Assembly: GCA_034422515.1 (NCBI GenBank)
Contig: DAOUJP010000007.1
Location: 21,175 to 85,174 of the forward strand
Length of the DNA stretch: 64,000 bases
Source of the DNA: Chloroflexota bacterium
Lineage (GTDB): Bacteria; Chloroflexota; UBA11872; UBA12225; JAJDUF01
Direction of reading: 5' to 3'
The position numbers and the translations under genes were made by a program. The notes under the pieces were generated by a model that had not been told where the DNA came from, made no database searches, and worked only from the letters and a program-made list of their open reading frames with translations. Position 1 is the first letter of the stretch; each line of letters starts with the position of its first letter. Below are positions 4,442 through 59,620 of this stretch, in pieces.

Positions 4442-4515
4442 GCGCGGTGCTACGATACAATAGGATGCAAGTCGGTGTAGTCATCAATGCCAGCGTAGAC
4501 TGAGGAGTGATCGTG

Positions 4516-5112
4516 ATGCAGGCTACGAGGCCGGCCGCCGCGCCCGCAGTGCTGCCGGTGGCTGCGAACGGGCTATACACTGCCGACGAGTTCATGGCGT
4601 TGCCGCTCGACCTGAAACGCTACGAGCTGGTGCGAGGTATGCTCGCGGAGGTAGCAGTGACCGGTTATGAACACGCCGAAGTCGAGGCAAATGTCTTCCG
4701 GCTGCTCGATCAGCACGTTTGGCCCCGACGGTTAGGGCGGGTCACGGGAGGCGGTGCGATGTTCCGCCTGCAACAGGAGCCGGATACGCTGCGCCGCCCG
4801 GATGTTGCGTTTGTGCGAACGGATCGTCTCCCGGCCCGCGATCAGCGGCGCTCATATGCCCAGTTCATTCCCGAGCTAGCCGTAGAAATCCTCTCGCCGA
4901 GCAATACGGCGGCAGAGATGCGGGAAAAGGTCGCGGAGTACCTGCGGGTCGGTGTGCTGCTGGTATGGATCGTTGATCCTGAGAGAGAGACCGTGACGAT
5001 CCATACATCGGATGCGGCGCCGGTGATACTGCCCGCCGCCGCCGAGATCACCGGTGGTGCCGTGCTGCCCGACTTCCGTTGCCCCGTCGCCGCCTTCTTC
5101 GACCTCGCCTGA
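4516..5112 (+). CDS. Uma2 (DUF820) family PD-(D/E)XK endonuclease-like protein
   Basis: YELVRG, RRPDVAFV, PELAVEILSPSN, KVAEYLRVGV..VWIVDP motifs; GAGGAG 8 nt before ATG 4516. Confidence 0.9.
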   Translation: MQATRPAAAPAVLPVAANGLYTADEFMALPLDLKRYELVRGMLAEVAVTGYEHAEVEANVFRLLDQHVWPRRLGRVTGGGAMFRLQQEPDTLRRPDVAFVRTDRLPARDQRRSYAQFIPELAVEILSPSNTAAEMREKVAEYLRVGVLLVWIVDPERETVTIHTSDAAPVILPAAAEITGGAVLPDFRCPVAAFFDLA

Positions 5113-10151: not shown

Positions 10152-11078
10152 TCATGGCCCTGCCGTGACCGGCAGCGCCGGGTCCGCACTCCACTCCGCC
10201 CAGGAGCCGTCGTAGAGCCGGGCGCGCTCGTAGCCGAGCAGCTTGAGAGCGAGAAGACCGCTGGCCGCTGCAAACCCGCGCCCACAGTACGCGATCACTT
10301 CACGGTCCGGGGTCACGCCCGCAGCAGCATAGAGTGACGCCAAGTCATCCGTTGGCAGATACGTCAACACCCGCTCGGTTGCCAGTAAGCGGTCGCGTTC
10401 GGCGGTGGGCGCCGTTGCCAGAGCGGGATCGGCGTTCGCCAGGTAGGGGACGTTGACGGCGCCGGGGATGTGGCCCGGCCGATCACCCCACGGATGCCCC
10501 TCGCTGCTGTGGTATTGATCCGCTGCCAGACAGTCCACAAGGGCCACGTCGGGTTGATTGAGCGCCGCCACGACCGCGGCTTTCGTGGCGAGCCAATCCG
10601 GCTGGGGGCGCGGGGTGAACGTGGCCGGCGGTGGCGCCGGTATCTCGGTAGACAAAGGGCGGCCCTCCGCCCGCCAGCGGCGCAGGCCGCCGTCGAGCAC
10701 CCGCACGCGCGCATGACCGTAGTAGGACGATGCCCACCACAGCCGGGCAGCCGACAAGGGCAGTACCATGTCGTCGTAGGCGACGACGAGGGTGTGGTTG
10801 CCAATCCCGAGCCGTTCCATCACCTGCGCGAACGACGCCGGCGGCACGAGCCGGTCGGGCACGTCGCTCTGTGGGTCGGCGAGGTCGCGCACCATGCCGA
10901 CGAAGACCGCCCCGGGGATATGGCCGGCCAAATAGCCGGCTTCATCGTCGGCACTGATCCCGCGCCCGGCCGCATAGCGGGCACGCCACCGCACGTCCAC
11001 CACCCGCACGTCGGGATGGTCGAGATGCTCGGCCAGCCAAGCCGTCCGGACGAGCGGCGAGGCATCCGGTGGTTGCAT
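10152..11078 (-). CDS. Two-domain rhodanese / sulfurtransferase (SseA-like)
   Basis: YLAGHIPGAV, VLDGG, PGHIPGAVNVP, active-site YCGRG, and C-terminal YDGSWAEW. Confidence 0.92.
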   Translation of the reverse strand: MQPPDASPLVRTAWLAEHLDHPDVRVVDVRWRARYAAGRGISADDEAGYLAGHIPGAVFVGMVRDLADPQSDVPDRLVPPASFAQVMERLGIGNHTLVVAYDDMVLPLSAARLWWASSYYGHARVRVLDGGLRRWRAEGRPLSTEIPAPPPATFTPRPQPDWLATKAAVVAALNQPDVALVDCLAADQYHSSEGHPWGDRPGHIPGAVNVPYLANADPALATAPTAERDRLLATERVLTYLPTDDLASLYAAAGVTPDREVIAYCGRGFAAASGLLALKLLGYERARLYDGSWAEWSADPALPVTAGP

Positions 11079-11218
11079 CGCTGGCGCCTCCCGTCGGCGG
11101 TTCGTATCGCTATGACACCGAGTATCATACCTGCCGGAAGCGAGGCTGGATTTCCGCAGTTCCAGGTCGTATTGATAGGCGATGTCCGGGGGCGTAAGAT
11201 CATCGGAGAGGTGGAGCG

Positions 11219-12352
11219 ATGGAGTGGGAGACGGCCAGCACGTTCTTGGCCACACGGGCGGCCGGATCGCTGGGCCTTGCGGCGCTCGCGCTGCTCCTCG
11301 CCGGGGGCGTGTGGTGGTTCCGCCGGATCGTGAGCCGCCGGCTCCGGTCGTCCGAGAGCGAGAGCTTGACGCGGCAGGTCGTGACCCGGTTCCTCGATGA
11401 CATCCGCGTCGTTGTGCCGTTGATGATTGTGGTGAGTGGTGCCTATCTGGCGCTCGCCAACCTCTCGCTCTGGGCTGCCGACGATCAGCGCCCGGCGGTG
11501 TGGCTGGGAGCCTTAGTCCTGGGACTGGCGCTCATCGCGGTGCTGCGAATGGCGCGCAGCTTCGTGAGTGTGTTCACAGAGCAGTTGGAGCAGCGGCTCC
11601 AGACACCCGAGCAGCTGCGGGTGCTGCAATCCGTCGTGCCCCAGGTGCAGCGGGCGTGTACGGGCGCCATTGTGGTCGTCGGTGCGCTGGTCATCCTGGA
11701 GCAAGTGGGGGTGTCGGTAGCGCCCTTGCTGGCCGGGCTGGGTATCGGCGGCATCGCGGTCGCTTTCGCGGCGCAGAACACCCTCGCCAACCTCTTGGCC
11801 GGCCTCAGTATCTTCATTGACGGTACTGTCCGCGTGGGCGATATGGTCGAGTTGGATAGTGGCCAGCGAGGGTTTGTCGAGGACGTGGGCTGGCGGACGA
11901 CCAAGCTCCGCCTGTTCGCCAACAACCTGCTCATTGTCCCGAACGGCAAGCTGGCCGAGAGCATCCTGACGAACTACCAGATGCCGAACGATGAGGTGTC
12001 GGTGTACGTTCGCAATGGTGTGGCCTACGACAGCGATCTGCAGCAGGTCGAGCAGGTCACGCTGGAGGTGGCTAACCGGCTGGTGCGCGATACGCCAGGG
12101 GCAGCGACCGACTTCGAGCCGATCATGCGCTACACTGCGTTTGCCGATTCCAACATCAACTACGTCGTTATCATGCGGGCCAAGGATTGGCCGACGAGCC
12201 GCCTGCTCCAGCATCGCTTCATCAAAGCGGTCAAGCAGCGCTACGACGAGGTGGGTATCGAGATTTCCTTCCCGGCTCGCAACCTCTACCTACGCGATTC
12301 CGACGGCCTCACGGCGCTGACCGCCACGGAGAACACCGAGCACACGGAGTAG
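11219..12352 (+). CDS. mscS: Small-conductance mechanosensitive channel (MscS family)
   Basis: LAGLGIGGIAVAFAAQNTLANLLAG, VGDMVE, G.VEDVGWRTTKLR, IVPNGKL, IEISFP. Confidence 0.92.
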   Translation: MEWETASTFLATRAAGSLGLAALALLLAGGVWWFRRIVSRRLRSSESESLTRQVVTRFLDDIRVVVPLMIVVSGAYLALANLSLWAADDQRPAVWLGALVLGLALIAVLRMARSFVSVFTEQLEQRLQTPEQLRVLQSVVPQVQRACTGAIVVVGALVILEQVGVSVAPLLAGLGIGGIAVAFAAQNTLANLLAGLSIFIDGTVRVGDMVELDSGQRGFVEDVGWRTTKLRLFANNLLIVPNGKLAESILTNYQMPNDEVSVYVRNGVAYDSDLQQVEQVTLEVANRLVRDTPGAATDFEPIMRYTAFADSNINYVVIMRAKDWPTSRLLQHRFIKAVKQRYDEVGIEISFPARNLYLRDSDGLTALTATENTEHTE

Positions 12353-20045: not shown

Positions 20046-21236
20046 ATGATACCTAGGTATCATTCGGACATCAGACCAATGGACCCATCTAACTTCAGCG
20101 CAAATGCACCCGGTCGCCTCGTGAAAACTACTGGTGGGCACTGGGCCTTTGTGCCTGACCCCTTGCCATCCAGTTTGCAACTGGGTGTTGAGACGGTCAT
20201 GCAGCTTGAGGAGGCAACACTGGCTCTTGGTGAGCTTGCCGGAGTCGGGCGGCTCCTCCCCAACGCCCATCTGTTGATTCGTCCATTTATACGCAAGGAG
20301 GCGCAAGTCTCCAGCCGCATCGAAGGTACGATCACCCGACTTGACCAACTCCTGATGTTCGAGGCAAATCCTTCAAGGGGACGTGAGGACTCTGCACAGC
20401 GGGAGGTGCTGAACTATGTTCTTGCGCTGGAGTATGGCTTGGAGCGACTGGAAACCTTACCGGTCAGTCTCAGGCTGATGCGTGAGCTCCATGAGCGACT
20501 ATTAGCCGGAGTGCGGGGGGAGCAGAAGAATCCCGGCAGATTTCGCCGCATGCAGAATGCTATTGGTTCAGCAGGTAGCACCCGGTTTATCCCGCCACCA
20601 GTCACAGAAATGATGCAGGCATTGAATGACCTCGAACAGTTTATCCACCAGCCAACGAATCTGCCGCTGTTAGTTCAAATAGCCCTGATTCACTATCAAT
20701 TTGAAACTATCCACCCCTTCATGGATGGTAATGGCCGCATCGGTCGGTTGTTAATCCCACTATTGTTGTATGATCGTCAGATACTTCGCGCACCGCTGTT
20801 GTACCTCAGTGCCTATTTTGAGAGGCACCGCGATGCGTATATGGATCATCTACTCAACGTAAGCCAACGGGGCAATTGGTTGGAATGGATCAACTTCTTC
20901 CTCAAGGGTGTTACCGAGCAGGCGAGGGACTCGATTCAACGTGCCCAGCGGCTACTCGACCTCTGGCAAACATATCGCGATCGCTTGCAGGCAATCGGCG
21001 GTTCAGCGCACCGTCTACACTTAGTTGATGACCTGTTCGCATTTCCGGTCACCACGATCCCGGAGGCGCAGAAGCTACTCGGGATAACCTACCGTGCTGC
21101 CCAACTCAACATTGAGAAGCTCGTGGATGCTGGTATTCTGCAATCGCCCGATACTGAGCAGATGCGGCCACGCCCCTACTACGCGCCCGAGATCATCCGT
21201 GTCATCGAGTCCGATGAGCCGGAGTCCGTCCGATGA
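20046..21236 (+). CDS. Fic family protein (Fic_N + Fic + C-terminal HTH-like region)
   Basis: KEAQVSSRIEGT; canonical HPFMDGNGRIGR; visibly more AT-rich than neighbours. Confidence 0.93.
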   Translation: MIPRYHSDIRPMDPSNFSANAPGRLVKTTGGHWAFVPDPLPSSLQLGVETVMQLEEATLALGELAGVGRLLPNAHLLIRPFIRKEAQVSSRIEGTITRLDQLLMFEANPSRGREDSAQREVLNYVLALEYGLERLETLPVSLRLMRELHERLLAGVRGEQKNPGRFRRMQNAIGSAGSTRFIPPPVTEMMQALNDLEQFIHQPTNLPLLVQIALIHYQFETIHPFMDGNGRIGRLLIPLLLYDRQILRAPLLYLSAYFERHRDAYMDHLLNVSQRGNWLEWINFFLKGVTEQARDSIQRAQRLLDLWQTYRDRLQAIGGSAHRLHLVDDLFAFPVTTIPEAQKLLGITYRAAQLNIEKLVDAGILQSPDTEQMRPRPYYAPEIIRVIESDEPESVR

Positions 21237-23538: not shown

Positions 23539-23967
23539 CTACCCGACCGCCGTGAGGGCGGCGCGGAGTTGCCGGTCGAGGGTCTCGGCAGAGGCGAGGC
23601 CGTAGTTCACCTCCTGCACCCGGTTGCCGGTGAGGATGACCGTGCTCGGAACGGTGAGCACACGGTACGCCCGGGCCAGGTCTGCCTGTGCCAGTGTATC
23701 CACCTCTACGACCGCTACCTGGTCGGCGAACTGGGCGCTGACCAGATCCACCAGCGGTTTTTGGACGCGATGGCAGGTGCCACAATGAGGGCTGCTGAAG
23801 TTCAACAGCGTGACCGGAGCGGTGATCTCGGTGGTAGGGTGGGGGAGTGGGGAGAGGCGCGCGCGGACGGCCGCAGCGTTTCGGCGTGTCCACCAGCGCA
23901 CGATGAAGCCAGCCAGCACCACCAAGGCTATGACCAGGAGCACGACCAGCAAGCGGTCGAGGGGCAT
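23539..23967 (-). CDS. Membrane-anchored thioredoxin-like protein
   Basis: N-terminal TM helix; FSSPHCGTC (CxxC); VLTVPS cis-Pro motif. Confidence 0.85.
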   Translation of the reverse strand: MPLDRLLVVLLVIALVVLAGFIVRWWTRRNAAAVRARLSPLPHPTTEITAPVTLLNFSSPHCGTCHRVQKPLVDLVSAQFADQVAVVEVDTLAQADLARAYRVLTVPSTVILTGNRVQEVNYGLASAETLDRQLRAALTAVG

Positions 23968-23976
23968 GCTTCTCCC

Positions 23977-24471
23977 TCAGGCCGGATTGGATGGCACCCG
24001 GCTATTGCCGGTCAAGCGCGCATAGTGGTGGACGATGAAGCACAGCGCGCAGAGGTCGAAGGCCGCATCAAGCAGGATCATCACGCCTACCAGTCCCGTC
24101 AAGGTCCAGGCCAGCCAGTTGAGACCGGGGAGCAGCACGAGCAGCACTCCGCTGAGGGCGAAGACAATGCCTCCCAGTACGCGGGCAATCCGCCGCGTCT
24201 CACGGTCCTCGTGAACCATCCGCCGTGGGAGCAGCCCGGCCGGTTGCAGGACGGCGGTGGTGAGCACGCGGAAGGGGTCGAACGGTCGCCAGAATCGCCC
24301 CAGTACCATGCATACCGCAGCGATGAAGAGCAGCCAAGCGCCGATTGCCGCCCCGACAACGTACCCCGCCGCGATCAGCGCAATCATCGCGTATTGGTGG
24401 GCCTTCCGTGGAATTACGTCGTAGCGTTGTAGCTCATCGTCGCCACATGGGTCAGCGGGTGTTGTAGTCAT
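23977..24471 (-). CDS. DUF4395-like membrane protein
   Basis: Four hydrophobic helices, conserved-looking ED...RRIARVLG segment, C-terminal AAFDLCALC. Confidence 0.7.
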   Translation of the reverse strand: MTTTPADPCGDDELQRYDVIPRKAHQYAMIALIAAGYVVGAAIGAWLLFIAAVCMVLGRFWRPFDPFRVLTTAVLQPAGLLPRRMVHEDRETRRIARVLGGIVFALSGVLLVLLPGLNWLAWTLTGLVGVMILLDAAFDLCALCFIVHHYARLTGNSRVPSNPA

Positions 24472-25927: not shown

Positions 25928-26031
25928 CACTGGAGCTGCACTCGCCCACGCAGACGTAACGCCGGGAATACAGTAGTATGTCCCTGCATACTCCACGTCC
26001 TCTGCCGAAAGTTTGGAAGGGAGCAACGAAG

Positions 26032-26508
26032 ATGGTGAGCACGCCAGCGGCACACGCGCCACCACGCTTGTTTAAGTGGTTCGACCCGGAATCCATCGCA
26101 GTCTCAGGGCTGCCGGACAATCCCGACGAGTTGGCCTATGTTGCCGGTGAGGGTATCCGGCGGATTGTCTCGGTCACGCAGACCACCCCGGACTACGACA
26201 CGATTGCCACGCTCGGCATGAGTGCCGTCCATTCGCCCGGTGTGTCCGACGATCTGGCGGCGTTGGATCGCGCCGTCGAGTCCGTCCACGCCGCCGTCAC
26301 CGAAGGCGATAAAGTCCTCCTGCACTGAGGGTCGGGCTATGGAGGGGCCGGTACGGCCCTATCAGCCTACCTCATCAAGCATCGGGGCGAGTCGGCGACC
26401 ACGGCGCTCGCTACCGTGCGGGCGTTCCGCGAACGCGATCTCCCCGGCGACGAGGCTGCCGTCCACCTGTCAGCCTACGAACAGCGCGTCCGCCCAGGAT
26501 CGGGCTAG
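26032..26508 (+). CDS. Probable selenoprotein of the dual-specificity phosphatase (DUSP23-like) fold; 158 aa with U99
   Basis: ORF track stops at TGA 26326-26328, but the frame continues VLLH-TGA-GSGYGGAGTALSAYLIKHRG...VRAFR to TAG 26508. The TGA aligns with Cys of the HCxxGxGRxGT loop. SECIS-like hairpin follows. GGAAGGGAG RBS before ATG 26032. Confidence 0.8.
26329..26367 (+). promoter_or_regulatory. Putative bacterial SECIS element
   Basis: Upper stem GGGCCG(26345-50)/CGGCCC(26354-59) with a G-initial loop GUA 22 nt after the UGA; lower stem GGCU(26335-38)/AGCC(26364-67). Confidence 0.65.
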
Positions 26509-26688
26509 GGCGTGTTTGCACATTGCTTGCATGACGCATAAAAGAGCAGCGATGGCCTGGCAATGTGTTTCGCCGCGTCGTCGTCCGGCTTCACCTGGGG
26601 GCCATAGGCGAGCCAGGCACAGATCAGTGGCGCGCCGCAGAGTAGGTGAACGACCGGTTGTACCCGCGACACAGAGAACGGAGTAGAC

Positions 26689-28008
26689 ATGCGACGACTC
26701 ACGAAAGGCGCGCTCGTCATCGCGGGAACGCTCGCAGCCCTCCTTGTCATCGGAGTATTCGTAGTCCGGGAGCGTGGTGAAGACACCCACATCCTGACTA
26801 CTGCCCAGGTGTTGAGCACGGCGGCGGCAACGTCCGTACCGGCGCCTACTGCGACCACACCGGCGCGTCCGAGTTCATCACCCCATGCCTATCGCGGGGT
26901 AGCGCTCGGCGGCCGTGAAGACAACGCGGAAATACGAGAGTGGATTGACCAGATGGGCACGCTGGGCCATGGCGAGAACAGCTATGACCATTGGGTGAGT
27001 CTTGGTAAGCCCCGCGACACTGCCAAGTATCCGACCATCTTGCAAGAATCGGAGCGTAGAGTCCTCACGGACGCCTTGATCCGACTCGAACGCATCAGCC
27101 CTCGGGAGTTGGCTGCGAAGCGTCAGCGACTGATCGAGTTTATCTGGAAGGAAGCAGGTTTTCCTAGCGTGAAGCATCCCCATGCCATTGCCAAGGATTT
27201 CTCTGACTCCAGATTTGCGTTGCTCGACGATCTAGCGAGCGTGCAACGAATCGAAGTCCTGATGGAGTTTGGAGTGAACTCGGTGATCTATCTCTTCCGC
27301 CCCCACGACGCGAATGGTCAGTTGCTGATCTATCATCAAGGACATGATGGTGGCTTTCTCCTAGGATTAGACACAATCCACTTCTTCGTCCAGCATGGCT
27401 ATGTGGTCGCGGCCTTCGCCATGCCGCTCTTGGGCATGAACGGCCGGCCGTCTTTTAAGATTCCGGACGGTACCTTGGCATTGCCGCAACATGGTGCTTT
27501 TCAATTCCTCGAATCCGATGCCTTCTCACCGCTGAAATTTTTCATTGAGCCGGTCGCGGTCTTTCTAAACTATGCGCTGGAGGAGTACGACTACGACTCG
27601 GTTGCGATGGTGGGTCTCTCTGGAGGTGGCTGGACCACCACGCTGGCGGCGGCCTTGGATCCACGCATCGCACGCAGCTATCCCGTGGCTGGATCACTGC
27701 CGCTCTTTTTTGCGAGCGCAAGAGATTACGAACAGACCCACCCGGGCTTCTATGCGCTGGCCAACTATCTGGAGCTATATGTCCTTGGTACCTACGGGGG
27801 GGCACGCCGGCAAATCCAGGTGCTCAACCGCTATGATCCGTGCTGCTTCGACGGCACTGGATATAGGCTCTATGTAGATCAGGTGGCAAGGACGTCAGAA
27901 AGGGTAGGCAACGGTTCGTTTTCCGTCTTCTTGGATGAGACACATCGCGAGCACAAAATATCCGAGGCGGCCTTAGCCCTCATCCTGAACGACCTCGAGC
28001 GCCCTTAG
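26689..28008 (+). CDS. Membrane-anchored/secreted alpha/beta hydrolase-like protein
   Basis: N-terminal hydrophobic helix, Ala/Thr/Pro linker, YHQGHD, nucleophile elbow GLSGGG, DPCCF, C-terminal EHKI. Confidence 0.7.
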   Translation: MRRLTKGALVIAGTLAALLVIGVFVVRERGEDTHILTTAQVLSTAAATSVPAPTATTPARPSSSPHAYRGVALGGREDNAEIREWIDQMGTLGHGENSYDHWVSLGKPRDTAKYPTILQESERRVLTDALIRLERISPRELAAKRQRLIEFIWKEAGFPSVKHPHAIAKDFSDSRFALLDDLASVQRIEVLMEFGVNSVIYLFRPHDANGQLLIYHQGHDGGFLLGLDTIHFFVQHGYVVAAFAMPLLGMNGRPSFKIPDGTLALPQHGAFQFLESDAFSPLKFFIEPVAVFLNYALEEYDYDSVAMVGLSGGGWTTTLAAALDPRIARSYPVAGSLPLFFASARDYEQTHPGFYALANYLELYVLGTYGGARRQIQVLNRYDPCCFDGTGYRLYVDQVARTSERVGNGSFSVFLDETHREHKISEAALALILNDLERP

Positions 28009-28073
28009 ATCGCCCTTAGATCGCCCTCGGGTTGGGACGGCCCCCGTGGCCGGCGGCGTATAAGGAGGCCCCC

Positions 28074-29197: not shown

Positions 29198-30952
29198 GTG
29201 GCATTCCAAACACCCATTACCATTCGTGACGCTATCAGTCGTATAGAGCGGAATGAATACGTGCTGCCAGCGATCCAGCGAGAGTTTGTCTGGAGTGCCG
29301 ATCAGGTCACGCAACTCTTCGACTCACTCATGCAGGGCTACCCAATTGGTAGCTTTCTCTTCTGGGATGTAGACCGCGATCACAGCCATGATTACGCCTT
29401 CTACGGCTTCCTTGCCGACTATCATCAGCGTGACCAGCGTCACAATCCACAGGTCAAACTCTCAGGCGCGACAGGGGTTACGGCTATTCTTGATGGACAG
29501 CAACGTCTTACCTCGCTCAACATCGGGTTGCGTGGGAGCTATGCCTACAAGACCAAGGGTAAATGGTGGAGAAGCGCCGATGCATTTCCGCGCCGGCGTC
29601 TCTACCTCAACCTCCTGCGCCCTGCCGAGGACGAGGAACTCATGATGTCCTACGACTTTCGCTTTTTGACTGACGAGGAGGCAGCGCGGTGTTCAGAGCA
29701 ACACCACTGGTTTCCGGTCATCCAGGTACTGCACTTCGGCAGTCTGCGTGAAATCAACGGCTATCTGCGTGGGCAGGATTTGCTGGCTTCGGAGTATGCC
29801 GAGAATTGCCTATTCAACCTCTACGAGGCGATCTGTAATAAGCGGCTTATCAACTACTACCTAGAGACTGATCAGGTGCTTGATAAGGTGCTCAACATCT
29901 TCATTCGGGTAAACAGCTTTGGGACTACGTTGAGTTACTCGGATTTGTTACTTAGCATTGCCACTGCTCAGTGGGAACATATTGATGCGAGACAAGCGAT
30001 CCCCGAGTTGGTGGACGACCTCAATAGGATCGGCGATGGCTTTAACCTGAACAAGGATTTCGTCCTCAAGTCCTGCCTGGTTCTGGCTAATCTGCCGGAC
30101 ATAGCCTTCAGAGTGCGGAACTTCACGCGGGAGAATACGCAGAAGATTGAGGCGGCCTGGCCGAAGATCGCGGAGGCACTCCGGATGGCGGTGAGCTTGG
30201 CCTCCCGCTTCGGCTACAGCGGTCACACGCTTACGGCCAACAATGTCCTGGTTCCTATCGCGTATTATCTGAAGTCGCGCGGTAGTCGTCCTAGTGAGTA
30301 CCTCGAACGGCACCAGTTCGCGGCTGATCGGGAAGCAGTGCGGTCATGGATGACCAGGGCACTTCTGAAGACGGGCACGTTCGGAGCCGGGCTTGATACC
30401 ACGCTCCGAACAGCGCGCCGCACGATCCAGGATGGTGCCAACGAATTTCCGCTTGATGACCTGGAGACCGCATTTGCCAGGATCGGGCGGGGGTTGCGGT
30501 TTGCCGAGGAGGAGATTGAAGATCTCCTGGATCAGGGCTATGGTCAGCGCCAGACGTTCTCGGTGTTAGCCCTCCTCTACCCACACGTGGACTTCAACAA
30601 CCGCTTCCATATCGATCACATTTTTCCGCGGAGTTGGTTTACTAGGTCCCGCCTGCGGAGGGCGGGGATTGCGGAGGAGCAGATTGACCGGTTCCTCGAC
30701 CGACGCGATGGTCTGGGCAATCTGCAACTGTTGGAGGGTACTCCTAATGAGGAGAAGTCAAGCCGGCCCCCGGCCGAATGGCTCCGTGAGCACTGCCCAA
30801 CCCCAGAGGCGTGTGACGGTTGGTACGAACGGAACTATGTCTCCACGGTGCCGGAAAGCCTGTCTGGGTTCCTCGACTTCTATGAAGAGCGCAGATCACG
30901 CATGAAAGAGCGTTTGGCTGGTCTTCTCAAGGTGCCACTTGGACGCGCCTAG
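29198..30952 (+). CDS. GmrSD-like (DUF262 + DUF1524/HNH) type IV restriction protein
   Basis: LPAIQREFVW, GYPIGSFL, LDGQQRLTS, FIRVN (DUF262); HIDHIFP...LGNLQLL...NEEKS (HNH). GTG start after AAGGAG. Confidence 0.88.
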   Translation: MAFQTPITIRDAISRIERNEYVLPAIQREFVWSADQVTQLFDSLMQGYPIGSFLFWDVDRDHSHDYAFYGFLADYHQRDQRHNPQVKLSGATGVTAILDGQQRLTSLNIGLRGSYAYKTKGKWWRSADAFPRRRLYLNLLRPAEDEELMMSYDFRFLTDEEAARCSEQHHWFPVIQVLHFGSLREINGYLRGQDLLASEYAENCLFNLYEAICNKRLINYYLETDQVLDKVLNIFIRVNSFGTTLSYSDLLLSIATAQWEHIDARQAIPELVDDLNRIGDGFNLNKDFVLKSCLVLANLPDIAFRVRNFTRENTQKIEAAWPKIAEALRMAVSLASRFGYSGHTLTANNVLVPIAYYLKSRGSRPSEYLERHQFAADREAVRSWMTRALLKTGTFGAGLDTTLRTARRTIQDGANEFPLDDLETAFARIGRGLRFAEEEIEDLLDQGYGQRQTFSVLALLYPHVDFNNRFHIDHIFPRSWFTRSRLRRAGIAEEQIDRFLDRRDGLGNLQLLEGTPNEEKSSRPPAEWLREHCPTPEACDGWYERNYVSTVPESLSGFLDFYEERRSRMKERLAGLLKVPLGRA

Positions 30953-42113: not shown

Positions 42114-42983
42114 TCACTCCCCAGGCGGAGAAACGTGCGGCAGAGATGGCTTGGGCCGCGGAATCCGGTCACGCCATTGCCAGTACTCGTCGAGGTTCCG
42201 ATACGGGACCGGCGAGTCGATGGCTCGTGCCATATCCGGTGTCAGGTAGTTCATCCAGTAGTCATCGAACACGTCCGGACCATGTGGTGCGAACGGCCCG
42301 TTACCATCCACCAAGCCTCGAATGCTCCTGATTGAGCCGATGTTTCTGGTATTTCCGCTCCCGGGGCGCTCACCGGCAATCCGCCACTTTTCTTGTAGCA
42401 AGAAAGTGAAATCGCCGATTACGGATACAATGCTCTGGAGATCGTCAATTGTGTAGACGCGGCGTTCGTCAATCGTGCCGTCCACACGGCTGTAGATCGT
42501 ACCGAGGATGAAATGTCCGCTATATTCCTCGTATGGGAATGTGATGTTCTTCTTGGATTCGCGTTGTCGAAAGTAGCCGGTGAATGATCCCAGGGTGAAG
42601 CCGTTCACGGAATGCCGGGTTCTCCGATATGTGCTCTTCAGGTCAAGTGCGAACTTGCTGCCGTCTGGAGCAAGGATGCTAATGTCCGGGTAGTGATTTT
42701 GATGCTCACTCAGTATTAATCTGAATCCGTGCTCCTCGGCGAACCGGGAAATAACGGGAAATAACATCAACTCAATGATCTTGGAGACTACTTTTGTATC
42801 TATTGAGATTGTATAAATGCGGCGATATACGTCAATGAACCCTTTGACTACCCAGTCACCGGTGTCAGTAGCCAAGGCATCAGTGAATCTGTTGAAGTGC
42901 CCGGCCAGAGCTTCTCTGAATGCCTCTGCGTTCATTTCCCAACCGCTTTCTTGTTCGAGTTTTGCACGGGAGCTATGTTCCAA
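42114..42983 (-). CDS. Type II restriction endonuclease, EcoRV family (alternative start 42935)
   Basis: DTKVVSKIIEL...QNHYPDI...ALDLKST...FTLGSFTGYFR parallels EcoRV (DTKVLSTIFE, QNHYPD, IDIKT); AT-richer than flanks. Confidence 0.88.
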   Translation of the reverse strand: MEHSSRAKLEQESGWEMNAEAFREALAGHFNRFTDALATDTGDWVVKGFIDVYRRIYTISIDTKVVSKIIELMLFPVISRFAEEHGFRLILSEHQNHYPDISILAPDGSKFALDLKSTYRRTRHSVNGFTLGSFTGYFRQRESKKNITFPYEEYSGHFILGTIYSRVDGTIDERRVYTIDDLQSIVSVIGDFTFLLQEKWRIAGERPGSGNTRNIGSIRSIRGLVDGNGPFAPHGPDVFDDYWMNYLTPDMARAIDSPVPYRNLDEYWQWRDRIPRPKPSLPHVSPPGE

Positions 42984-44052
42984 TCAGAAGAATCTCCCTT
43001 GACTTGCCGTTGGTGGACAACACATATTGATATTCTCCGTAGTGGCGGACTGTAACGTGGCGCTTGTATCGCTGGAGTAGCAACAGTAGCTCCTGCTCGG
43101 ACGGGATGCCGTCACTACGATAGGATACGACGATGATGCTGTCCTGGTGTCTCCTGAACACGCTATCGAAAGCAGCGTAAATCTTTCGTTTATCGATCCA
43201 TTCGCTTTGCCGCGCCTTCAGCCGAAGATGCTTGGAGCAATAGTCGATCATCTCGCCCCAAGTATCGTACATTGCTAGACCCTCCAGGAAATGGTAGTAC
43301 CAGTGATAGTCAACGGATGACCCTTTCCTGGATATGTAGGGAGTGTCAATATAGACGAGATCGTACTCGTTCGGAGCAGCGACGGCATCCATATTCAGCG
43401 CAACGTTTCGCTGCCCGTTGTCGAAGACGGCTTCGTTCGCTTCTTGCACGAAGATACGGAACCACTCGTCAAACGGCTTGTCCCACGAAGTCTTGTTGCC
43501 GAAAGATCGCTTCACGTCGGCTAGTCGGATGTAGAGATTTTTGCGGTGAAAGAGATTGTACGGTCGTTTCACTATACAGGACTGACACAGAGCGAAGAAA
43601 GCAAGGGAAAGTTTGTACGGATCATTGATCTGACGGATATTGGCGATGGTTTGGTCAATCCAAGCGTTCTCTTCGTCCGTGAAGTAAACGTCGGTGAAAT
43701 TGCTCTCTACAAATGAATGATATGCAATAAGCCGGTGCCTCTGAAGTAGCCATTCCACTTCATCAGGCGTGAGGCGAGCGTGGCTGTTCTCGATGAGTGC
43801 TACTCCGATATGGTAGTTGAAGCGGAGGCAGTCGTTGTACGTTACTTGCTTGCCTTCTTGCTTCAGGCGATAGCCAACGGCGCCGGTGCCGCCAAAGGCA
43901 TCCAAGCAGGTCAGGAAATCGAGGTCCGAGACTTGCTCCCAAATCCAGCTAGCGAGCTTGGCCTTGCTGCCCTGATAGCGCGTGGAAGGAAACTTCCCGG
44001 CTATTCCGAGTGGGAGTGTCGGCTGGTAGCTGATAGCTGCGCTCATGGTCAA
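42973..44052 (-). CDS. DNA adenine-N6 methyltransferase (D12/Dam-like, alpha class)
   Basis: RYQGSKAKL; motif I DAFGGTGAV; motif IV variant YIDTPY; immediately upstream of and overlapping the REase. Confidence 0.9.
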   Translation of the reverse strand: MTMSAAISYQPTLPLGIAGKFPSTRYQGSKAKLASWIWEQVSDLDFLTCLDAFGGTGAVGYRLKQEGKQVTYNDCLRFNYHIGVALIENSHARLTPDEVEWLLQRHRLIAYHSFVESNFTDVYFTDEENAWIDQTIANIRQINDPYKLSLAFFALCQSCIVKRPYNLFHRKNLYIRLADVKRSFGNKTSWDKPFDEWFRIFVQEANEAVFDNGQRNVALNMDAVAAPNEYDLVYIDTPYISRKGSSVDYHWYYHFLEGLAMYDTWGEMIDYCSKHLRLKARQSEWIDKRKIYAAFDSVFRRHQDSIIVVSYRSDGIPSEQELLLLLQRYKRHVTVRHYGEYQYVLSTNGKSREILLIGT

Positions 44053-46239: not shown

Positions 46240-47991
46240 CTAGGTAGACCGCTGGAAGCGGCGCCGCCGCTTCAGTTCGCTCGTGCGGAGCGGCGGCGGG
46301 GCCGGGCCGTCTAGGGTGGTCGGTTGGAGAGTTGGCGTCTCGTTCCGGGCCAGCATGGCCAGCAGCCGGCGCACGCGCTCGTTCCACTCGCCGCTGCCGC
46401 GGGCGTGGTAGGCGCGCAGCGGTTCGAGCGTGCCGGGCGTGGCGAGGAAATCGTCCAGTTCTTGGCGCCCTTGCACGCCACTATGCTCCGCGGCTTGGAC
46501 GACGTAGTAGACGTGTCCATGGAGGGTGACGAAATCCTCCTCGCCGACCAGCGGCCGCAGGAGCAGGCGCTCCAATTCCTCGCTGGCGGCTGCCGTGAAC
46601 TCCTTGACCGGGATGATCGCGGTCTGCGCTTGCCGTCGCGCTCGTAGCTCCAGCCAGACGAAGATCGCCTTCTCCAGGCCACCGATCAGAAAGTCGGGCA
46701 CCACGCGCTGCTGCCGATCCTGTGCCTGCACTTCCAGCGAGAAAAACCGCACGGAGTCGCCACCGATGGCCTCCAGGTCCTCCAGGCTCAGGGCGGCCAT
46801 GAGCGGGTGGACCCCCGCTGGCGGAGTGGATGACAGATGGGTGCTTCTGGACCTCAGCCCCAGGCTGCTTACCGTCAGTGCCAGGAAGCGCAGCGACCGA
46901 CAGGCGCGGACGCGCCGGCGCACCGCGTCAATCGAGGGCGCCAGTGACAAGGCCTGCTCCACGCTAATCCGCCCATGCTCCAGATAGGCTTCCAGCTCCT
47001 CTTCCTGCCGCCGCTGCCGATAGGCTTCATTGATCCGCGCTTCCCGCTCTCCCAGCCACAGATCGCCGGGGAGATCGACACCTACCTCATGCGTGTTGAG
47101 CAGCCGGACGAGCGCTTCCGACGTTGCCGGTGGCTCATCGGGTTCCGGCTCGAACCCGTCGTAGGCTTGCGCCAGCACCATGTCAACGGCAAAGGGCGTA
47201 AGCGCGACCGTCTGCGCCTCACCATCCGCACGGACGCGATCCAGCAGCACGTCCCAACCGTCCGCGATCTCTTGATCGCTGGCCGCATCTACGGCCGCTT
47301 CGATGTCGTTCCCGGCCTGCTCGTAGCTCTCTTGCGCCCGTGACCACGCTTCCTCATCCCCCGTGCCGGCCCGGCGCAGCACTTCGGCCAGAAACAGCAC
47401 ACGCATCCGTGCCCCGAGCGGCGCCACCCGTACCGGCGGGAGAAACTTCTGCCAGCGCATCAGGTCCGATTCGGGATTCTCGGTGTCGGCGAACTCCTCC
47501 ACGAATTCGCTATAGTGCCAGCCATCGCTCGCGGCCCAGATCGCGGCAAGCTCCAGATACAGCTCGACGGCCGGCCCGGCCACCGGGCGAGTGAAGGTCA
47601 CCTCGTCGTAGAGGCGTAAGGCCTCCCCGGCCAAGTCGAACAGCTCCTGGAAGTTCTCCAACGACACGCTGCCCTCGTCGGCCAACGCACGCAGCGCCTC
47701 CCCACTGAGCGCATTGGCCGCATAGAGCGCGCCAGCCTGCACGTACCGGCTGCGCGGCGTGAGCTGGTCCAGCGCCAGCACCACGTCGCAGGCCCGCTGC
47801 ACGTAAGCTGCGCGATCCGTCGGCCGCACTTTGGGGAGCGAGCGCTGCCTACTCTTGCGTTCTTCGATGAAGCGGAGTAGATCGTTGGTGCTCTGTAACG
47901 CTTGCTCGCCGACCACGCGGTATTGGCGCTCCATGCGCGTGAATTCCCAGAGGCGGTCGGCAATTTGGGTGTCGGCTTCAATCATGGTCAC
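46240..47991 (-). CDS. Hypothetical 583-aa acidic alpha-helical protein
   Basis: Long ORF with typical codon usage and GGAGG RBS; no motif recognised. Confidence 0.75.
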   Translation of the reverse strand: MTMIEADTQIADRLWEFTRMERQYRVVGEQALQSTNDLLRFIEERKSRQRSLPKVRPTDRAAYVQRACDVVLALDQLTPRSRYVQAGALYAANALSGEALRALADEGSVSLENFQELFDLAGEALRLYDEVTFTRPVAGPAVELYLELAAIWAASDGWHYSEFVEEFADTENPESDLMRWQKFLPPVRVAPLGARMRVLFLAEVLRRAGTGDEEAWSRAQESYEQAGNDIEAAVDAASDQEIADGWDVLLDRVRADGEAQTVALTPFAVDMVLAQAYDGFEPEPDEPPATSEALVRLLNTHEVGVDLPGDLWLGEREARINEAYRQRRQEEELEAYLEHGRISVEQALSLAPSIDAVRRRVRACRSLRFLALTVSSLGLRSRSTHLSSTPPAGVHPLMAALSLEDLEAIGGDSVRFFSLEVQAQDRQQRVVPDFLIGGLEKAIFVWLELRARRQAQTAIIPVKEFTAAASEELERLLLRPLVGEEDFVTLHGHVYYVVQAAEHSGVQGRQELDDFLATPGTLEPLRAYHARGSGEWNERVRRLLAMLARNETPTLQPTTLDGPAPPPLRTSELKRRRRFQRST

Positions 47992-48305
47992 AGACCTCCA
48001 TACGCATCAGGTTAGTCGGAGAGTGCCGTGCGCCGCCGGGGGCACGGCACGACCCTCCGAGAGTACACATACGCTGCTGTGCATACCACAAGCACTCGAA
48101 CCTTATACCGGGAATGCATTGAGAGCGAATGCTTGTGCGCCGCCTTGAGCCATGAACCATAGGGACTGCTGCGGCGCTGGCAATTCAGAGTGTACCGCTG
48201 GAGCTTGCTTACGGCAAGCGCAGTGGCCGGGCCGGGCATTCGCCGGCTATGCTTGTACCGGAAGCGAACGGTCCGGCTCACGCTGGGTGAGTCGGGAGGA
48301 GGGCG

Positions 48306-49925
48306 ATGTTGTCGGCGCAGGATGGTGTGGCGGATGTGCTCATCGTCGGCGCGGGGGCGTCGGGCGCGGCGGTAGCGTGGTCGTTGTCGCAAGCCGGGCT
48401 GTCGGTCGTCTGCCTGGAGCAAGGCGGCTGGGTGGACCCGCATTCGTATCCCCACAACCGGCCCGACTGGGAGCACCACCGGGCCACCGACTTTGCCAAG
48501 GACCCGAATGTACGCCAGCGCCCGGAAGACTATCCCGTCAACGTGGACCGGACGCCCATTGTCCCGCTCATGTTCAATGCCGTCGGCGGCAGCACGATCC
48601 ACTGGAGCGGGCACTTTCCCCGCTTTCGTCCCTCGGACTTCCGCGTCCAGAGCCTCGATGGCGTTGCCGACGACTGGCCGCTGACCTACTGGGACCTGGA
48701 GCCATACTACGAGCAGAACGACGCGATGATCGGAGTGACCGGCTTGAGCGGCGATCCGGCAAACCCGCCGCGCCAGCCCCGGCAGTCGCCGCCGCTCGGT
48801 CTCGACCGCGCTGGCGAGGTCTACGTCCGTGGGCTAGAGAAGCTGGGTTGGCATTGGTGGCCGTCGGACTGTGCCCTGATCACCGTGCCTCATGGTGACG
48901 GCCGCAGCGTGTGTAACAACTGCGGGCCGTGTGACATGGGGTGCCCAATCGGCGCGATGTCCAGTGCTCACGTCACCTATTGGCCGGCCGCTCTCGCGCG
49001 GGGCGTGCGCCTCGTGACCCATGCGCGGGTGCGAGAGATCACGGTAGACGGAGACGGTCGTGCGGATGGCGTCGTGTTCTACGACCAGGACGGCAACGAG
49101 CATCGCCAAGCGGCGCGGGTGGTGGTGCTGGCCGGCAACGGGGTCGGCACGCCACGTTTGCTCCTCAACTCGACCTCGCCGCGCTTTCCGAACGGCTTGG
49201 CCAACGACAGCGGGCTGGTCGGCCGGAACCTGATGTTCCATCCGGTGGCGTTTGTGAGCGGGGTGTTCCCGGAGCGGGTCAACGGCTACCGGGGACCGGA
49301 CGGGCTGCTCATCCACTGCCAGGAGTTCTACGAAACCGACCGCAGTCGCGGTTTCGTGCGTGGCTTGCAGTTGCAATTCGCCCGCGACGTTGGGCCGCTC
49401 GGTGCGGCGCTCGGCACCTTCACGGGCCAATCGGTACCCTGGGGCACCGATCATCACCGCACCTGGCGCGAGCGGTTTGGTCATGCCCTGACCGTGGCCG
49501 TGATGGTGGAAGACCTGCCGGAGCTACACAACCGGGTGACCTTGGACCCGGTGCTGCGGGACGGACACGGCATCGCGGCCCCGCGGATCGAGTACACTCT
49601 GAGCGAGAATAGTCAGCGTGCGCTCGACTTCGGTGTGGCGCGAGCGACCGAAGTCTTTGAAGCCGCGGGGGCGCATACGGTGTTCACCCAGTCGCCGCTG
49701 CGTAACTCCGGCTGGCATCTGATGGGCACGGCGCGGATGGGTGATGATCCTCAGCACTCCGTCACGGATCGTTGGGGACGCACCCACGACGTTCCCAATC
49801 TCTTCATCGTAGACGGGAGCCTGTTCGTGACCTGCGCGCCGATTAATCCGACCAGTACCATCCAAGCCTTGGCGCTCCGCACCGCCGCTTGGCTCGCCGA
49901 CAACTTCTCCGAGGAGGCCTCATGA
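48306..49925 (+). CDS. GMC family flavin oxidoreductase
   Basis: IVGAGASG, AVGGSTIHW, DWPLTYWDLEPYY, CNNCGPC cluster, VGRNLMFH, HLMGTARMG, INPTSTIQALA. Confidence 0.93.
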   Translation: MLSAQDGVADVLIVGAGASGAAVAWSLSQAGLSVVCLEQGGWVDPHSYPHNRPDWEHHRATDFAKDPNVRQRPEDYPVNVDRTPIVPLMFNAVGGSTIHWSGHFPRFRPSDFRVQSLDGVADDWPLTYWDLEPYYEQNDAMIGVTGLSGDPANPPRQPRQSPPLGLDRAGEVYVRGLEKLGWHWWPSDCALITVPHGDGRSVCNNCGPCDMGCPIGAMSSAHVTYWPAALARGVRLVTHARVREITVDGDGRADGVVFYDQDGNEHRQAARVVVLAGNGVGTPRLLLNSTSPRFPNGLANDSGLVGRNLMFHPVAFVSGVFPERVNGYRGPDGLLIHCQEFYETDRSRGFVRGLQLQFARDVGPLGAALGTFTGQSVPWGTDHHRTWRERFGHALTVAVMVEDLPELHNRVTLDPVLRDGHGIAAPRIEYTLSENSQRALDFGVARATEVFEAAGAHTVFTQSPLRNSGWHLMGTARMGDDPQHSVTDRWGRTHDVPNLFIVDGSLFVTCAPINPTSTIQALALRTAAWLADNFSEEAS

Positions 49926-55993: not shown

Positions 55994-56146
55994 AGTCGCA
56001 GCCTCCTGATGTTCGCTGAATCGTAGCGCGAGGGAGCAGGCGGCTCACCCCGCCGTACCGGAGTTTCGCCGGTTATGTCGTTTTCGTGCGCCGCGTGCAA
56101 TCGGCCGGGAAAATGAGCGTCCGGCAAGTCGTGCCTACCGGAGCTA

Positions 56147-57016
56147 CTAGCTCCCCGCCTGTGCCGCTGCCTGCTCCACCGCCCGCCGCGTGTAGACGCG
56201 AACGAGATGAGCGCGATATTCGGCGGACGCGAACAGGTCGTCGTTGAGGTCGAGACCCTCGGCGGCCTGTTCGGCGGCGGCAGCGATATTGTCAGCGGTG
56301 AGTTCCTGGCCGGTCAGCGCGGCCTCGACGGCCATGGCTCGCATCGGCGTGCTCCCGACGCCGGTAATCCCGATCCGCGCCCGCTCACACTTGCCGTCAG
56401 TGCCGACGGTCACGACGGCGGCGACGCCACAGAGCGCGTAGCCCGATGCCGGATGGGCATTCTTGACGTAGGCCGCGCCGCTCTGGCCGGACGTGGCCGG
56501 CACGGTAATCGTCGTCAGTAGCTCATCGTCACCGAGCGCGGTCATCAGCGGGCCGGTGAAGAAGCTGTCGGCAGCGATGGTGCGGCTGCCGTTCGCACTC
56601 ACGGCCGTCAACTCGGCTTCCAGCGCCAGCACTGCGGCCGGGAGGTCCGCGGCCGGGTCGCCGTGCGCCAAGCTGCCCCCGATGGTGCCGAGGTTACGCA
56701 CTTGGCGGTCGCCGATAATGGCGGCCGTCTGCTGGAGCAGCGGACACGCCGCCCCCAGCGCCTCCGAATCCTCCAGAGTGCTGTGCGTGGTGCCGGCTCC
56801 CACCGTGACTTGCCCGTTGTCGGTGCTGATGCCGGACAGCCCCTCGATGCTCCCGATGTCAACCAGCACCTCCGGGGCGGCCAGGCGCAGTTTCATCAAC
56901 GGAATGAGGCTATGCCCTCCGGCCAGTATTTTGGCGTCGTCGCCGTGCTCGGCAAGCAGCGCCACGGCCTCCTCGACGGTGGATGGTGTTTCGTATGCAA
57001 ACGCGCTTGGGATCAT
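56147..57016 (-). CDS. FAD-binding medium subunit, CoxM-like
   Basis: LAGGHSLIPLMKLRLA, QVRNLGTIGGSLAHGDPAAD. Confidence 0.93.
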   Translation of the reverse strand: MIPSAFAYETPSTVEEAVALLAEHGDDAKILAGGHSLIPLMKLRLAAPEVLVDIGSIEGLSGISTDNGQVTVGAGTTHSTLEDSEALGAACPLLQQTAAIIGDRQVRNLGTIGGSLAHGDPAADLPAAVLALEAELTAVSANGSRTIAADSFFTGPLMTALGDDELLTTITVPATSGQSGAAYVKNAHPASGYALCGVAAVVTVGTDGKCERARIGITGVGSTPMRAMAVEAALTGQELTADNIAAAAEQAAEGLDLNDDLFASAEYRAHLVRVYTRRAVEQAAAQAGS

Positions 57017-57083
57017 CTCGGTTGCCTCCTTCCGAAGATTCCGCGCTTCCTATGGTCTCCGGTTGACCGTTCTCGTCGGACCG

Positions 57084-59501
<2,418 letters not shown>

Positions 59502-59620
59502 GGTTGCCCTCCTCTCATCCTCTGTCGAATGCCTCGCACTCCATTCACATTGGGGAAGTTGCGAGCCGTCAGGCCCATAGTCCCGGCAGCTCACTCCCCG
59601 GCAGTAGGGCTACGGTGGTC

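Follow-up and report, generated by a model that had tools for sequence, protein, structure and literature searches.

Does the TGA codon at 26326-26328 end a gene, or is it read through as selenocysteine (Sec)? This question is raised by a short locus (26032-26508, plus strand) in a stretch of 64,000 nucleotides from a Chloroflexota bacterium (contig DAOUJP010000007.1), which was analyzed as a whole and is called the window here. An earlier inspection made without database searches (the sequence-only reading) had noticed that the open reading frame (ORF) ends at this TGA and that the same frame continues for 59 codons to a TAG. It had proposed a hidden selenoprotein, in which Sec replaces the catalytic cysteine of a domain similar to DUSP23. 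The present analysis leads to the prediction, held with a probability of about 0.82, that 26032-26508 is one gene encoding a selenoprotein of 158 residues on the DUSP23 fold, whose function is most likely of a redox or chalcogen type and not that of a phosphomonoesterase. As the open frame and the hairpin behind the TGA are cues that arise easily by chance and are weak alone, the case rests on comparative evidence, which is strong.

A conserved TGA within the frame

The frame opens with the ATG at 26032 and is preceded by a Shine-Dalgarno-like GGAAGGGAG (26015-26023, plus strand), located 8 nucleotides 5' of the start codon. Upstream of this ATG the in-frame peptide WKGATK is kept in relatives, which fits a conservation of the nucleotides of the ribosome-binding site. 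The first part of the coding sequence (26032-26325, plus strand) specifies residues 1-98 (M1 to H98) and corresponds to the hypothetical protein of 98 amino acids reported by gene callers. It is followed by the in-frame TGA (26326-26328, plus strand), the predicted codon for Sec at position 99 (U99), which in alignments falls on the catalytic Cys of DUSP23 and of all Cys-type relatives. The second part (26329-26505, plus strand) specifies residues 100-158 and, as judged by substitution rates and by Pfam and PDB alignments, completes the protein tyrosine phosphatase (PTP) fold. All 59 codons behind the TGA are open, just as the sequence-only reading had described, and the frame closes with the TAG at 26506-26508 (plus strand), the presumed true stop; relatives stop at TAG, TAA or TGA within 0-3 codons. 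The read-through product of 158 amino acids reads ...KVLLH-U-GSGYGGAGTALSAYLIKHRG..., and the residues around the predicted Sec are VLLH-U-GSGYGGAGTALSAYLIK. Of the 42 window genes, 15 use TGA as their ordinary stop, which rules out a reassigned genetic code. Long open frames behind stop codons are common in this window of 64% GC, where dozens of TGAs are so placed. The long frame that had drawn attention to the locus is thus real, but weak as a cue when taken alone.

The read-through product was searched against 5.8 billion protein clusters. This search yielded eight relatives of 70-95% identity, all of them called at 97-98 amino acids, and in the DNA of all eight this codon is TGA as well, behind which the frame goes on with GSGYGGAGTALSAYLIKHRG... 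for another 57-59 codons. An exhaustive search of 1.84 billion cluster representatives with the N-terminal profile as query added clusters of less than 50% identity (P0009-P0014 and P0019). These are 96-99 amino acids long (one fragment has 63) and can be aligned up to their last residue, which ends the proteins in ...LVH or ...LIH. The DNA for P0010, P0011, P0014 and a relative of P0012 shows in each case a TGA followed by G-S-G-(Y/H)-G-G-A-G-T. In addition, 185,579 species-representative genomes were scanned for the peptide motif behind the TGA, irrespective of the codon in front of it. Nine Chloroflexota genomes were found, all with TGA, and seven of these are closed chromosomes of 3.5-4.4 Mb (OZ243944.1, OY759972.1, OZ241866.1, OZ244848.1, OZ242293.1, OZ250185.1 and OY760183.1). 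The only matches with TGT (Cys) were archaeal Nitrosocaldus genes, which contain the canonical loop HC-AAGKGRTGT including its Arg. The loop lacking this Arg was met solely behind TGA. Altogether, TGA occupies the same codon in 14 of 14 distinct Sec-type sequences and in the further locus L031, drawn from the nine species-representative Chloroflexota genomes and from metagenome contigs, and these relatives fall into 7-8 clusters below 50% identity. No member of the Sec clade among the relatives with DNA read carries TGC or TGT at codon 99. The source record of one relative labels its metagenome-assembled genome (MAG) Dehalococcoidia, and within the material sampled the predicted family is restricted to Chloroflexota.

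These results bear on the possibility that the locus is a nonsense pseudogene or the product of a sequencing or assembly error, i.e. that a recent TGA lesion has struck a former Cys-phosphatase gene. Such an origin would agree with the treatment of the gene by pipelines, which handle it as an ORF of 98 amino acids, and with the window, in which no Sec machinery was seen. However, the identical TGA codon occurs in independent assemblies (long-read closed chromosomes, TARA, JGI and Logan), including lineages whose N-terminal parts are only ~45% identical to that of the window, the frame downstream is open and under purifying selection, and neither TGC nor TGT occurs in the clade. The sequence-only reading had asked whether the TGA might be unique to this strain; it is present in every Chloroflexota homologue with DNA read. 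As the same TGA appears in every relative read, a strain-specific nonsense mutation or sequencing error is excluded by this comparison, and a lesion or error of any kind is vanishingly improbable.

Selection beyond the TGA was assessed by pairwise ratios of nonsynonymous to synonymous substitution rates (dN/dS). Values range from 0.06 to 0.48 downstream of the TGA, mostly 0.1-0.3, and from 0.09 to 0.37 upstream. This indicates that the 3' segment is under purifying selection at a level equal to or below that upstream, and the conserved downstream frame for which the sequence-only reading had suggested looking is found. The first 24 codons 3' of the TGA (GSGYGGAGT..YLIK) form the most conserved stretch of the protein and contain no in-frame ATG, GTG or TTG, and the Pfam and PDB alignments run across the UGA into the second part of the coding sequence. 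It is against these data that a genuine stop has to be considered, in which the 98-residue fragment is functional and the downstream segment is conserved as a separate small ORF or an RNA element. Gene callers do place ORFs within the post-TGA segment, of 38 amino acids in L015 and 33 in L014, two of the divergent loci, and since insertion of Sec is never fully efficient, the shortened product is probably also present. Nevertheless this explanation is very improbable: no in-frame start exists in the first 24 codons, yet these are the most conserved part and continue the DUSP23 fold in register; dN/dS points to protein-level selection in exactly the post-TGA frame; and half a PTP domain without its P-loop and C-terminal helices is unlikely to fold. 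The called ORFs of 33-38 amino acids within the post-TGA segment of divergent members (L015 429-545, L014 1255-1356, L016 1416-1532 and L017 1244-1360) are spurious and are another symptom of the missed recoding. On this comparative evidence it is highly probable that 26032-26508 is a genuine recoded gene.

The hairpin and the residue inserted at the TGA

The TGA is part of an element resembling a Sec insertion sequence (SECIS; 26326-26374, plus strand). Its lower stem, formed by UGAGG (26326-26330) and CCUCA (26370-26374), encloses an apical hairpin GGGGCCG-GUA-CGGCCCU (26344-26360, plus strand) with a stem of 7 base pairs and a predicted stability of -11.9 kcal/mol, and the minimum free energy of the full element is -26 kcal/mol. 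The apical loop (26351-26353), which is GUA (or GGUAC), begins with GU 22 nucleotides after the UGA. For bacterial SECIS (bSECIS) elements a loop of 3-9 nucleotides, an upper stem of 4-16 base pairs, a spacing of 16-37 nucleotides and a minimum free energy of -7.5 kcal/mol or lower have been published (PMC13188914 Fig. 2). In addition, the loop has a G within its first two positions, usually followed by G or U (PMC13188914). The hairpin at 26344-26360 lies within all of these published limits.

The argument drawn from this hairpin rests on constraint. Among the eight close relatives, 39 of 58 four-fold degenerate sites at conserved residues vary, in contrast to none of six consecutive sites in the hairpin (Fisher p=0.004). 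These six invariant sites belong to the codons GGA GGG GCC GGT ACG GCC, and a run-length permutation gave p=0.027. The same holds for six lineages that are saturated: invariant four-fold sites number 0/15 outside the hairpin and 3/4 inside (p=0.004), and third-base identity is 0.33 outside and 0.92 inside. Only one site in the hairpin varies: L014 has GGA for GGG and, on the other side of the stem, GCT for GCC, by which a G-C pair is replaced by A-U in a compensatory change. In three lineages an Ala-to-Val change turns a G-C pair of the helix into G.U. Over 14 distinct sequences the apical helix is paired in 100% of cells and the lower helix in 94%. Minor Gly codons are kept in the element (GGA, 9%; GGT, 16%), of which GGT supplies the G-U of the loop. 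Frozen synonymous sites and one compensatory change thus answer the question of hairpin conservation that had been posed for this locus, and they show that the hairpin is under selection at the RNA level beyond the needs of the protein. A search of Rfam gave no match at the gathering threshold and noise alone at a permissive threshold.

At UGA99 the residue inserted is, with scarcely less assurance than attaches to the recoding itself, predicted to be Sec. The UGA lines up with a Cys in homologues, Cys95 in DUSP23 and the HC motif in P0021, P0024, P0028, P0029, P0033, P0040, P0042, P0043 and the Nitrosocaldus loci, and thus forms a Sec/Cys pair. By the standard bacterial route, which the anatomy of the element suggests, SelB with Sec-tRNA(Sec) would bind the SECIS hairpin within the coding sequence and recode UGA99. 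In some systems a stable hairpin behind a stop codon can enhance read-through. From this precedent UGA99 might be read without Sec, by near-cognate insertion of Trp, Cys or Arg that is stimulated by the hairpin. Such a decoding is improbable, as the UGA lies exactly on the nucleophilic Cys of the homologues, which is the classic Sec/Cys pairing, in its spacing and its G-U loop the hairpin matches a bacterial SECIS, with GGT invariant although it is a minor codon (16%), and TGC or TGT, each one mutation away, was never met in the clade. Moreover, Dehalococcoidia are documented as heavy users of Sec (PMC13326102).

Several observations weigh against decoding as Sec and have to be set beside this evidence. 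In a recoding control the peptide GSGYGGAGTALSAYLIKHRGESATT was recoded synonymously with the window's own codon usage, and 47% of the recodings yielded a bSECIS-compliant hairpin, 13% one as stable as that observed. Compliance with the bSECIS constraints is therefore low in specificity here and the presence of such a hairpin alone proves nothing: it is easy to get from a coding sequence rich in Gly, Ala and GC. The hairpin was rejected as stand-alone evidence after this control. The description of a hairpin of bacterial SECIS geometry 22 nucleotides downstream was correct, but its value as an independent cue was not borne out. Covariation is also weak, with a single double change and a score that 42 of 500 shuffles attain as well; it is this formal weakness that leaves the hairpin argument to constraint. 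Furthermore, no tRNA-Sec was detected by ARAGORN in the window and 19 loci, no SelA, SelB or SelD by Pfam in ~30 window genes outside the region annotated through L013, and none of selA, selB, selC and selD in the 64 kb window or the fetched loci (whole carrier genomes were not searched). At the level of the class, support comes from BSepDB, in which Dehalococcoidia MAGs with 46 and 49 selenoprotein genes are among the ten richest bacteria (PMC13326102). Neither a scan for in-frame TGA combined with GC content at third codon positions (GC3) nor a scan for TGA plus bSECIS revealed another selenoprotein gene within the 64 kb window. Other window candidates with an in-frame TGA and high GC3 on both sides were rejected as adjacent gene pairs or antisense frames, and the TGA-plus-bSECIS candidate at 47600 (minus strand) is an off-frame artefact inside an ORF of 583 amino acids.

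Active site and predicted chemistry

With Cys placed at U99, the product matches the Pfam families PTP-SAK (PF22784; 4.8e-13, 49.9 bits, cutoff 27) and DSPc (PF00782; residues 41-151, 9e-10, 38.9 bits, cutoff 33.5), and the latter match spans the TGA. A match to PF22785 Tc-R-P (34.6 bits), a dual-specificity phosphatase domain of defence or polymorphic-toxin proteins, lies beneath these two stronger ones. Among solved structures human DUSP23 comes closest (2IMG, E=7.8e-15), with its catalytic Cys95 aligned to U99, Arg101 of its P-loop to G105 and its general acid Asp65 to G70. The sequence-only reading had thus correctly recognized a DUSP23-like domain that is completed past the TGA, the position of the TGA on the nucleophilic Cys and the replacement of the P-loop Arg by Gly.

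For a comparison of active sites, seven Sec-type products were aligned with six Cys-type relatives including DUSP23. In the P-loop segment H98-U99-G-S-G-Y-G-G105-A106-G-T108 (26323-26355, plus strand), G105 replaces the invariant Arg and A106 the Ser/Thr that follows it. Cys-type loops read HCxxGxGRTGT, in the Sec clade the loop is HU-GSGYGGAGT, with Gly for Arg and Ala for Thr, and the motif G[SA]G[YH]GGAGT is invariant in all Sec-type members. The signature H-C-x5-R-(S/T) consequently fails at three positions in every Sec-type member (UGA, Gly105 and Ala106), and for this reason the protein is not filed as a phosphatase. The equivalent of the general-acid (D) loop, H67-S-P-G-V-S-D-D74 (26230-26253, plus strand), was located by alignment with the Cys-type relatives. 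It is 3 residues shorter than in these and has Gly or Asn at the position of DUSP23 Asp65 in all members but L014, which retains an IPD-like Asp. The alignment thereby substantiates the earlier remark that no clear WPD/IPD acid loop is present, in that the IPD acid is missing, with one nuance: D74, an Asp located 4-5 residues past the Pro of the loop, is kept in most Sec-type members and could serve as a substitute acid. The RPGSIE..Q motif of Cys-type proteins is changed to R(P/E)(G/R)DL in the Sec clade, without the Gln. The Sec clade still has the His in front of the nucleophile, the G-x-G spacing, a Tyr or His in the loop and the YL(I/V)K helix.

These differences suggest that the Chloroflexota clade has jointly lost the P-loop Arg, the following Ser/Thr, the canonical general-acid Asp loop and the RPGSIE..Q motif. 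With this apparatus gone, the protein is most likely not a phosphomonoesterase. Sec would be positioned at the base of the P-loop in place of the nucleophilic Cys, and its fully ionised selenolate, held in a glycine-rich cradle of backbone amides, would perform redox or chalcogen chemistry. A candidate reaction is the reduction of peroxide or of another small oxidant or electrophile. Since no second Cys is conserved, recycling of the enzyme would depend on an external thiol, for example thioredoxin. Once oxidised, the selenolate might close a ring with the next nitrogen of the backbone. Such a cyclic selenenyl-amide would correspond, with selenium for sulfur, to the sulfenyl-amide of oxidised PTP1B, and an Se-N ring is also found in ebselen. 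Whether phosphatase chemistry has been left for chemistry of a redox type is evenly poised. The more specific suggestion is a tentative one and falls somewhat short of even odds: that this may be the first natural selenoenzyme of the PTP fold, with a chemistry so far undescribed in this fold, in which the selenolate of an Arg-less P-loop would act as a thiol-recycled reductase or peroxidase and Sec would have been gained as the phosphate apparatus was lost.

Two findings count against the redox role. The Sec-type alignment contains no conserved second (resolving) Cys, and the window protein is devoid of Cys altogether. Also, no operon partner or neighbor is conserved across the divergent members, which sit among genes for an aminoacyl-tRNA synthetase, RecO, NAD synthase or an acetyltransferase. 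An operon-based inference of function was therefore rejected, as these surroundings are unrelated housekeeping genes.

A genuine selenoprotein might still be a phosphoesterase or an oxyanion enzyme, that is a phosphatase, a reductase of arsenate or another oxyanion, or an S/Se-transferase, in which the more reactive selenolate makes up for the absent Arg and Asp. In the Cys-based phosphatase family the P-loop Arg is regarded as essential, and it is Gly in every member of the clade, with Ala for the Ser/Thr and the RPGSIE..Q motif gone. The cradle of P-loop backbone amides and the preceding His are kept, however, D74 is present in most members and L014 has its IPD-like Asp. An anion-binding geometry common to PTP-like, rhodanese and arsenate-reductase loops speaks for such a function as well, as do the Sec-containing rhodaneses and arsenate reductases among the known selenoprotein families (PMC13188914 Table 1). 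On the other hand, Pfam gave no match to rhodanese (PF00581), LMW-PTP (PF01451) or ArsC (PF03960) at E up to 1, and no ars or sulfur-transfer genes are neighbors of the gene. Taking both sides into account, a phosphoesterase or oxyanion enzyme is unlikely but a serious competitor, and a selenoprotein with redox or chalcogen chemistry is preferred.

Genomic context, catalogue status and known systems

Close relatives share the gene order: GH172 precedes the selenoprotein gene, and genes for a DUF4395 protein and a thioredoxin lie farther upstream. In the window the DUF4395 gene (23977-24471, minus strand) is followed 9 nucleotides later in the same frame by the thioredoxin gene (23539-23967, minus strand). 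This pair lies ~1.5-4.5 kb upstream of the gene in L002-L004, L007, L010, L011 and L013, but not in L001. Considered as a selenoprotein joined across a TGA, it proved to be two separate Cys-type genes. The nearby thioredoxin is conceivable as a reductant, with a linkage that is confined to closely related genomes. The immediate flanks of the selenoprotein gene are variable (window, 25928-28073; L001, 8855-9628; L007, 7972-9502; L010, 9205-12049). Relatives hold a PhdYeFM antitoxin, a DUF5678 protein and small unknown ORFs between GH172 and the selenoprotein gene. In the window an ORF of 439 amino acids (26689-28008), which matches neither Pfam nor PADLOC, is located between the gene and a GFO_IDH_MocA gene that stands directly 3' of it in other genomes. 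PADLOC detected no defence-system match, and the gene is part of no toxin or defence locus.

Elsewhere in the window, a gene for an EcoRV-family restriction endonuclease (Pfam E=8e-98) adjoins one for a D12-class N6-adenine DNA methyltransferase (42114-44052, minus strand), and the two apparently form a complete type II restriction-modification pair. Genes for a GmrSD-type protein resembling type IV restriction enzymes (29198-30952), a Fic/Fic_N protein (20079-21236) and a Uma2 putative endonuclease (4507-5112), all on the plus strand, are dispersed amid sugar and oxidoreductase genes; the GmrSD gene is missing here in several relatives. Two molybdopterin large subunits of the xanthine-dehydrogenase/CO-dehydrogenase family (783 and 836 amino acids) are encoded around an FAD-binding medium subunit (53642-59594, minus strand). 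Some members of this family use a labile selenium cofactor, which also requires SelD. The ORF of 583 amino acids mentioned above and an adjoining one of 200 (46240-48614, minus strand) have no Pfam match; the former shows a coding GC pattern of 0.74/0.46/0.80. A tandem-rhodanese protein of 367 amino acids (10152-11255, minus strand) has a TGA stop followed by 45 open codons, and was rejected as a Sec candidate because the whole rhodanese domain lies ahead of the stop (it covers profile positions 4-101 of 102).

As the sequence-only reading had anticipated, pipelines shorten the gene: all database copies have 86-99 amino acids, including the 56 members of the window's own 90% cluster, and those with a name are hypothetical proteins. 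NCBIfam release 20 contains no model of this family: searches with three divergent read-through products returned only PRK12361 at 19-23 bits (best 22.6, compared to a cutoff of 505), and the HUGP/GUXX-star (NF041212) and UGSC (NF041046) models gave no match above cutoff. An inventory of May 2026, which lists 119 prokaryotic selenoprotein families or subfamilies and includes the families of Haft and Tolstoy 2025 in its review table, contains no entry with a PTP, dual-specificity phosphatase (DSP) or other phosphatase fold (PMC13188914). No phosphatase appears in the Sargasso, deep-Sep or BSepDB papers, and the only one in the GOS paper is a PP2C domain fused to a Prx selenoprotein. Nothing relevant was found in literature that combines selenoproteins with SAR202 or with tyrosine or dual-specificity phosphatases; the groundwater-MAG candidates of Deng et al. 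lie outside this comparison. A selenoprotein family of the PTP fold is apparently uncatalogued. At the level of sequence, the locus shows every feature by which bacterial selenoproteins are classed as "high-confidence predicted".

Known selenoproteins are mostly redox enzymes, of the thioredoxin fold or others. A clade that gained Sec while losing the Arg, the Ser/Thr, the acid loop and the Gln motif would represent a natural experiment and, if the prediction is true, would show what a bare P-loop with a selenolate can catalyse and how the acquisition of Sec reshapes an active site. All public copies are mis-annotated as hypothetical proteins of ~98 amino acids. The family should be added to selenoprotein models such as those of NCBIfam and BSepDB, so that the selenoproteomes of Chloroflexota are counted correctly. 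Its short, stand-alone gene is tractable for expression, structure determination and assay.

Among known systems, DUSP23/VHZ and the bacterial and archaeal DUSP23-like Cys phosphatases (2IMG, 4ERC and 25XA) are homologous over residues 11-151 with E ~1e-14. They share with the predicted Sec protein the N-terminal F-x-W, the V-S-(V/L)-T strand, the His before the nucleophile, the G-x-G spacing of the P-loop, the YL(I/V)K helix and a length of ~155 amino acids, but have Cys as nucleophile where UGA (Sec) is found here, and GRTGT in the P-loop instead of GGAGT. The Cys-type relatives are ~30% identical or less to the Sec protein. The element itself resembles the E. coli fdhF-type or bSECIS consensus (Zhang and Gladyshev, per PMC13188914), in which the UGA also lies within the lower stem. 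A small G-U apical loop, a spacing of 22 nucleotides, an upper stem of 7 base pairs and a Sec/Cys pair complete the likeness. What sets the protein apart from known selenoproteins of this type is its host fold, PTP/DSP, and the distance to its nearest Cys homologues (~30% identity). Since further catalytic positions have changed as well, the Sec clade does not represent a simple Cys-to-Sec swap.

The active-site loops of rhodaneses and arsenate reductases resemble the PTP P-loop in geometry. Sec-containing rhodanese-like proteins and arsenate reductases have been listed (PF00581, TIGR00014 and NF041106; PMC13188914 Table 1), and like the protein predicted here they are small and have Sec for the nucleophilic Cys in an anion-binding loop. 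However, they are unrelated to it by sequence or Pfam, and keep basic loop residues where the present loop consists of Gly, Ala, Ser and Tyr. In PTP pseudophosphatases of the STYX type, substituted catalytic positions should abolish classical phosphatase chemistry, and such proteins usually lose the nucleophile. In the Chloroflexota clade, by contrast, it is the auxiliary residues that are lost, and the nucleophile appears upgraded to a predicted Sec; this speaks for altered catalysis and not for a loss of catalysis.

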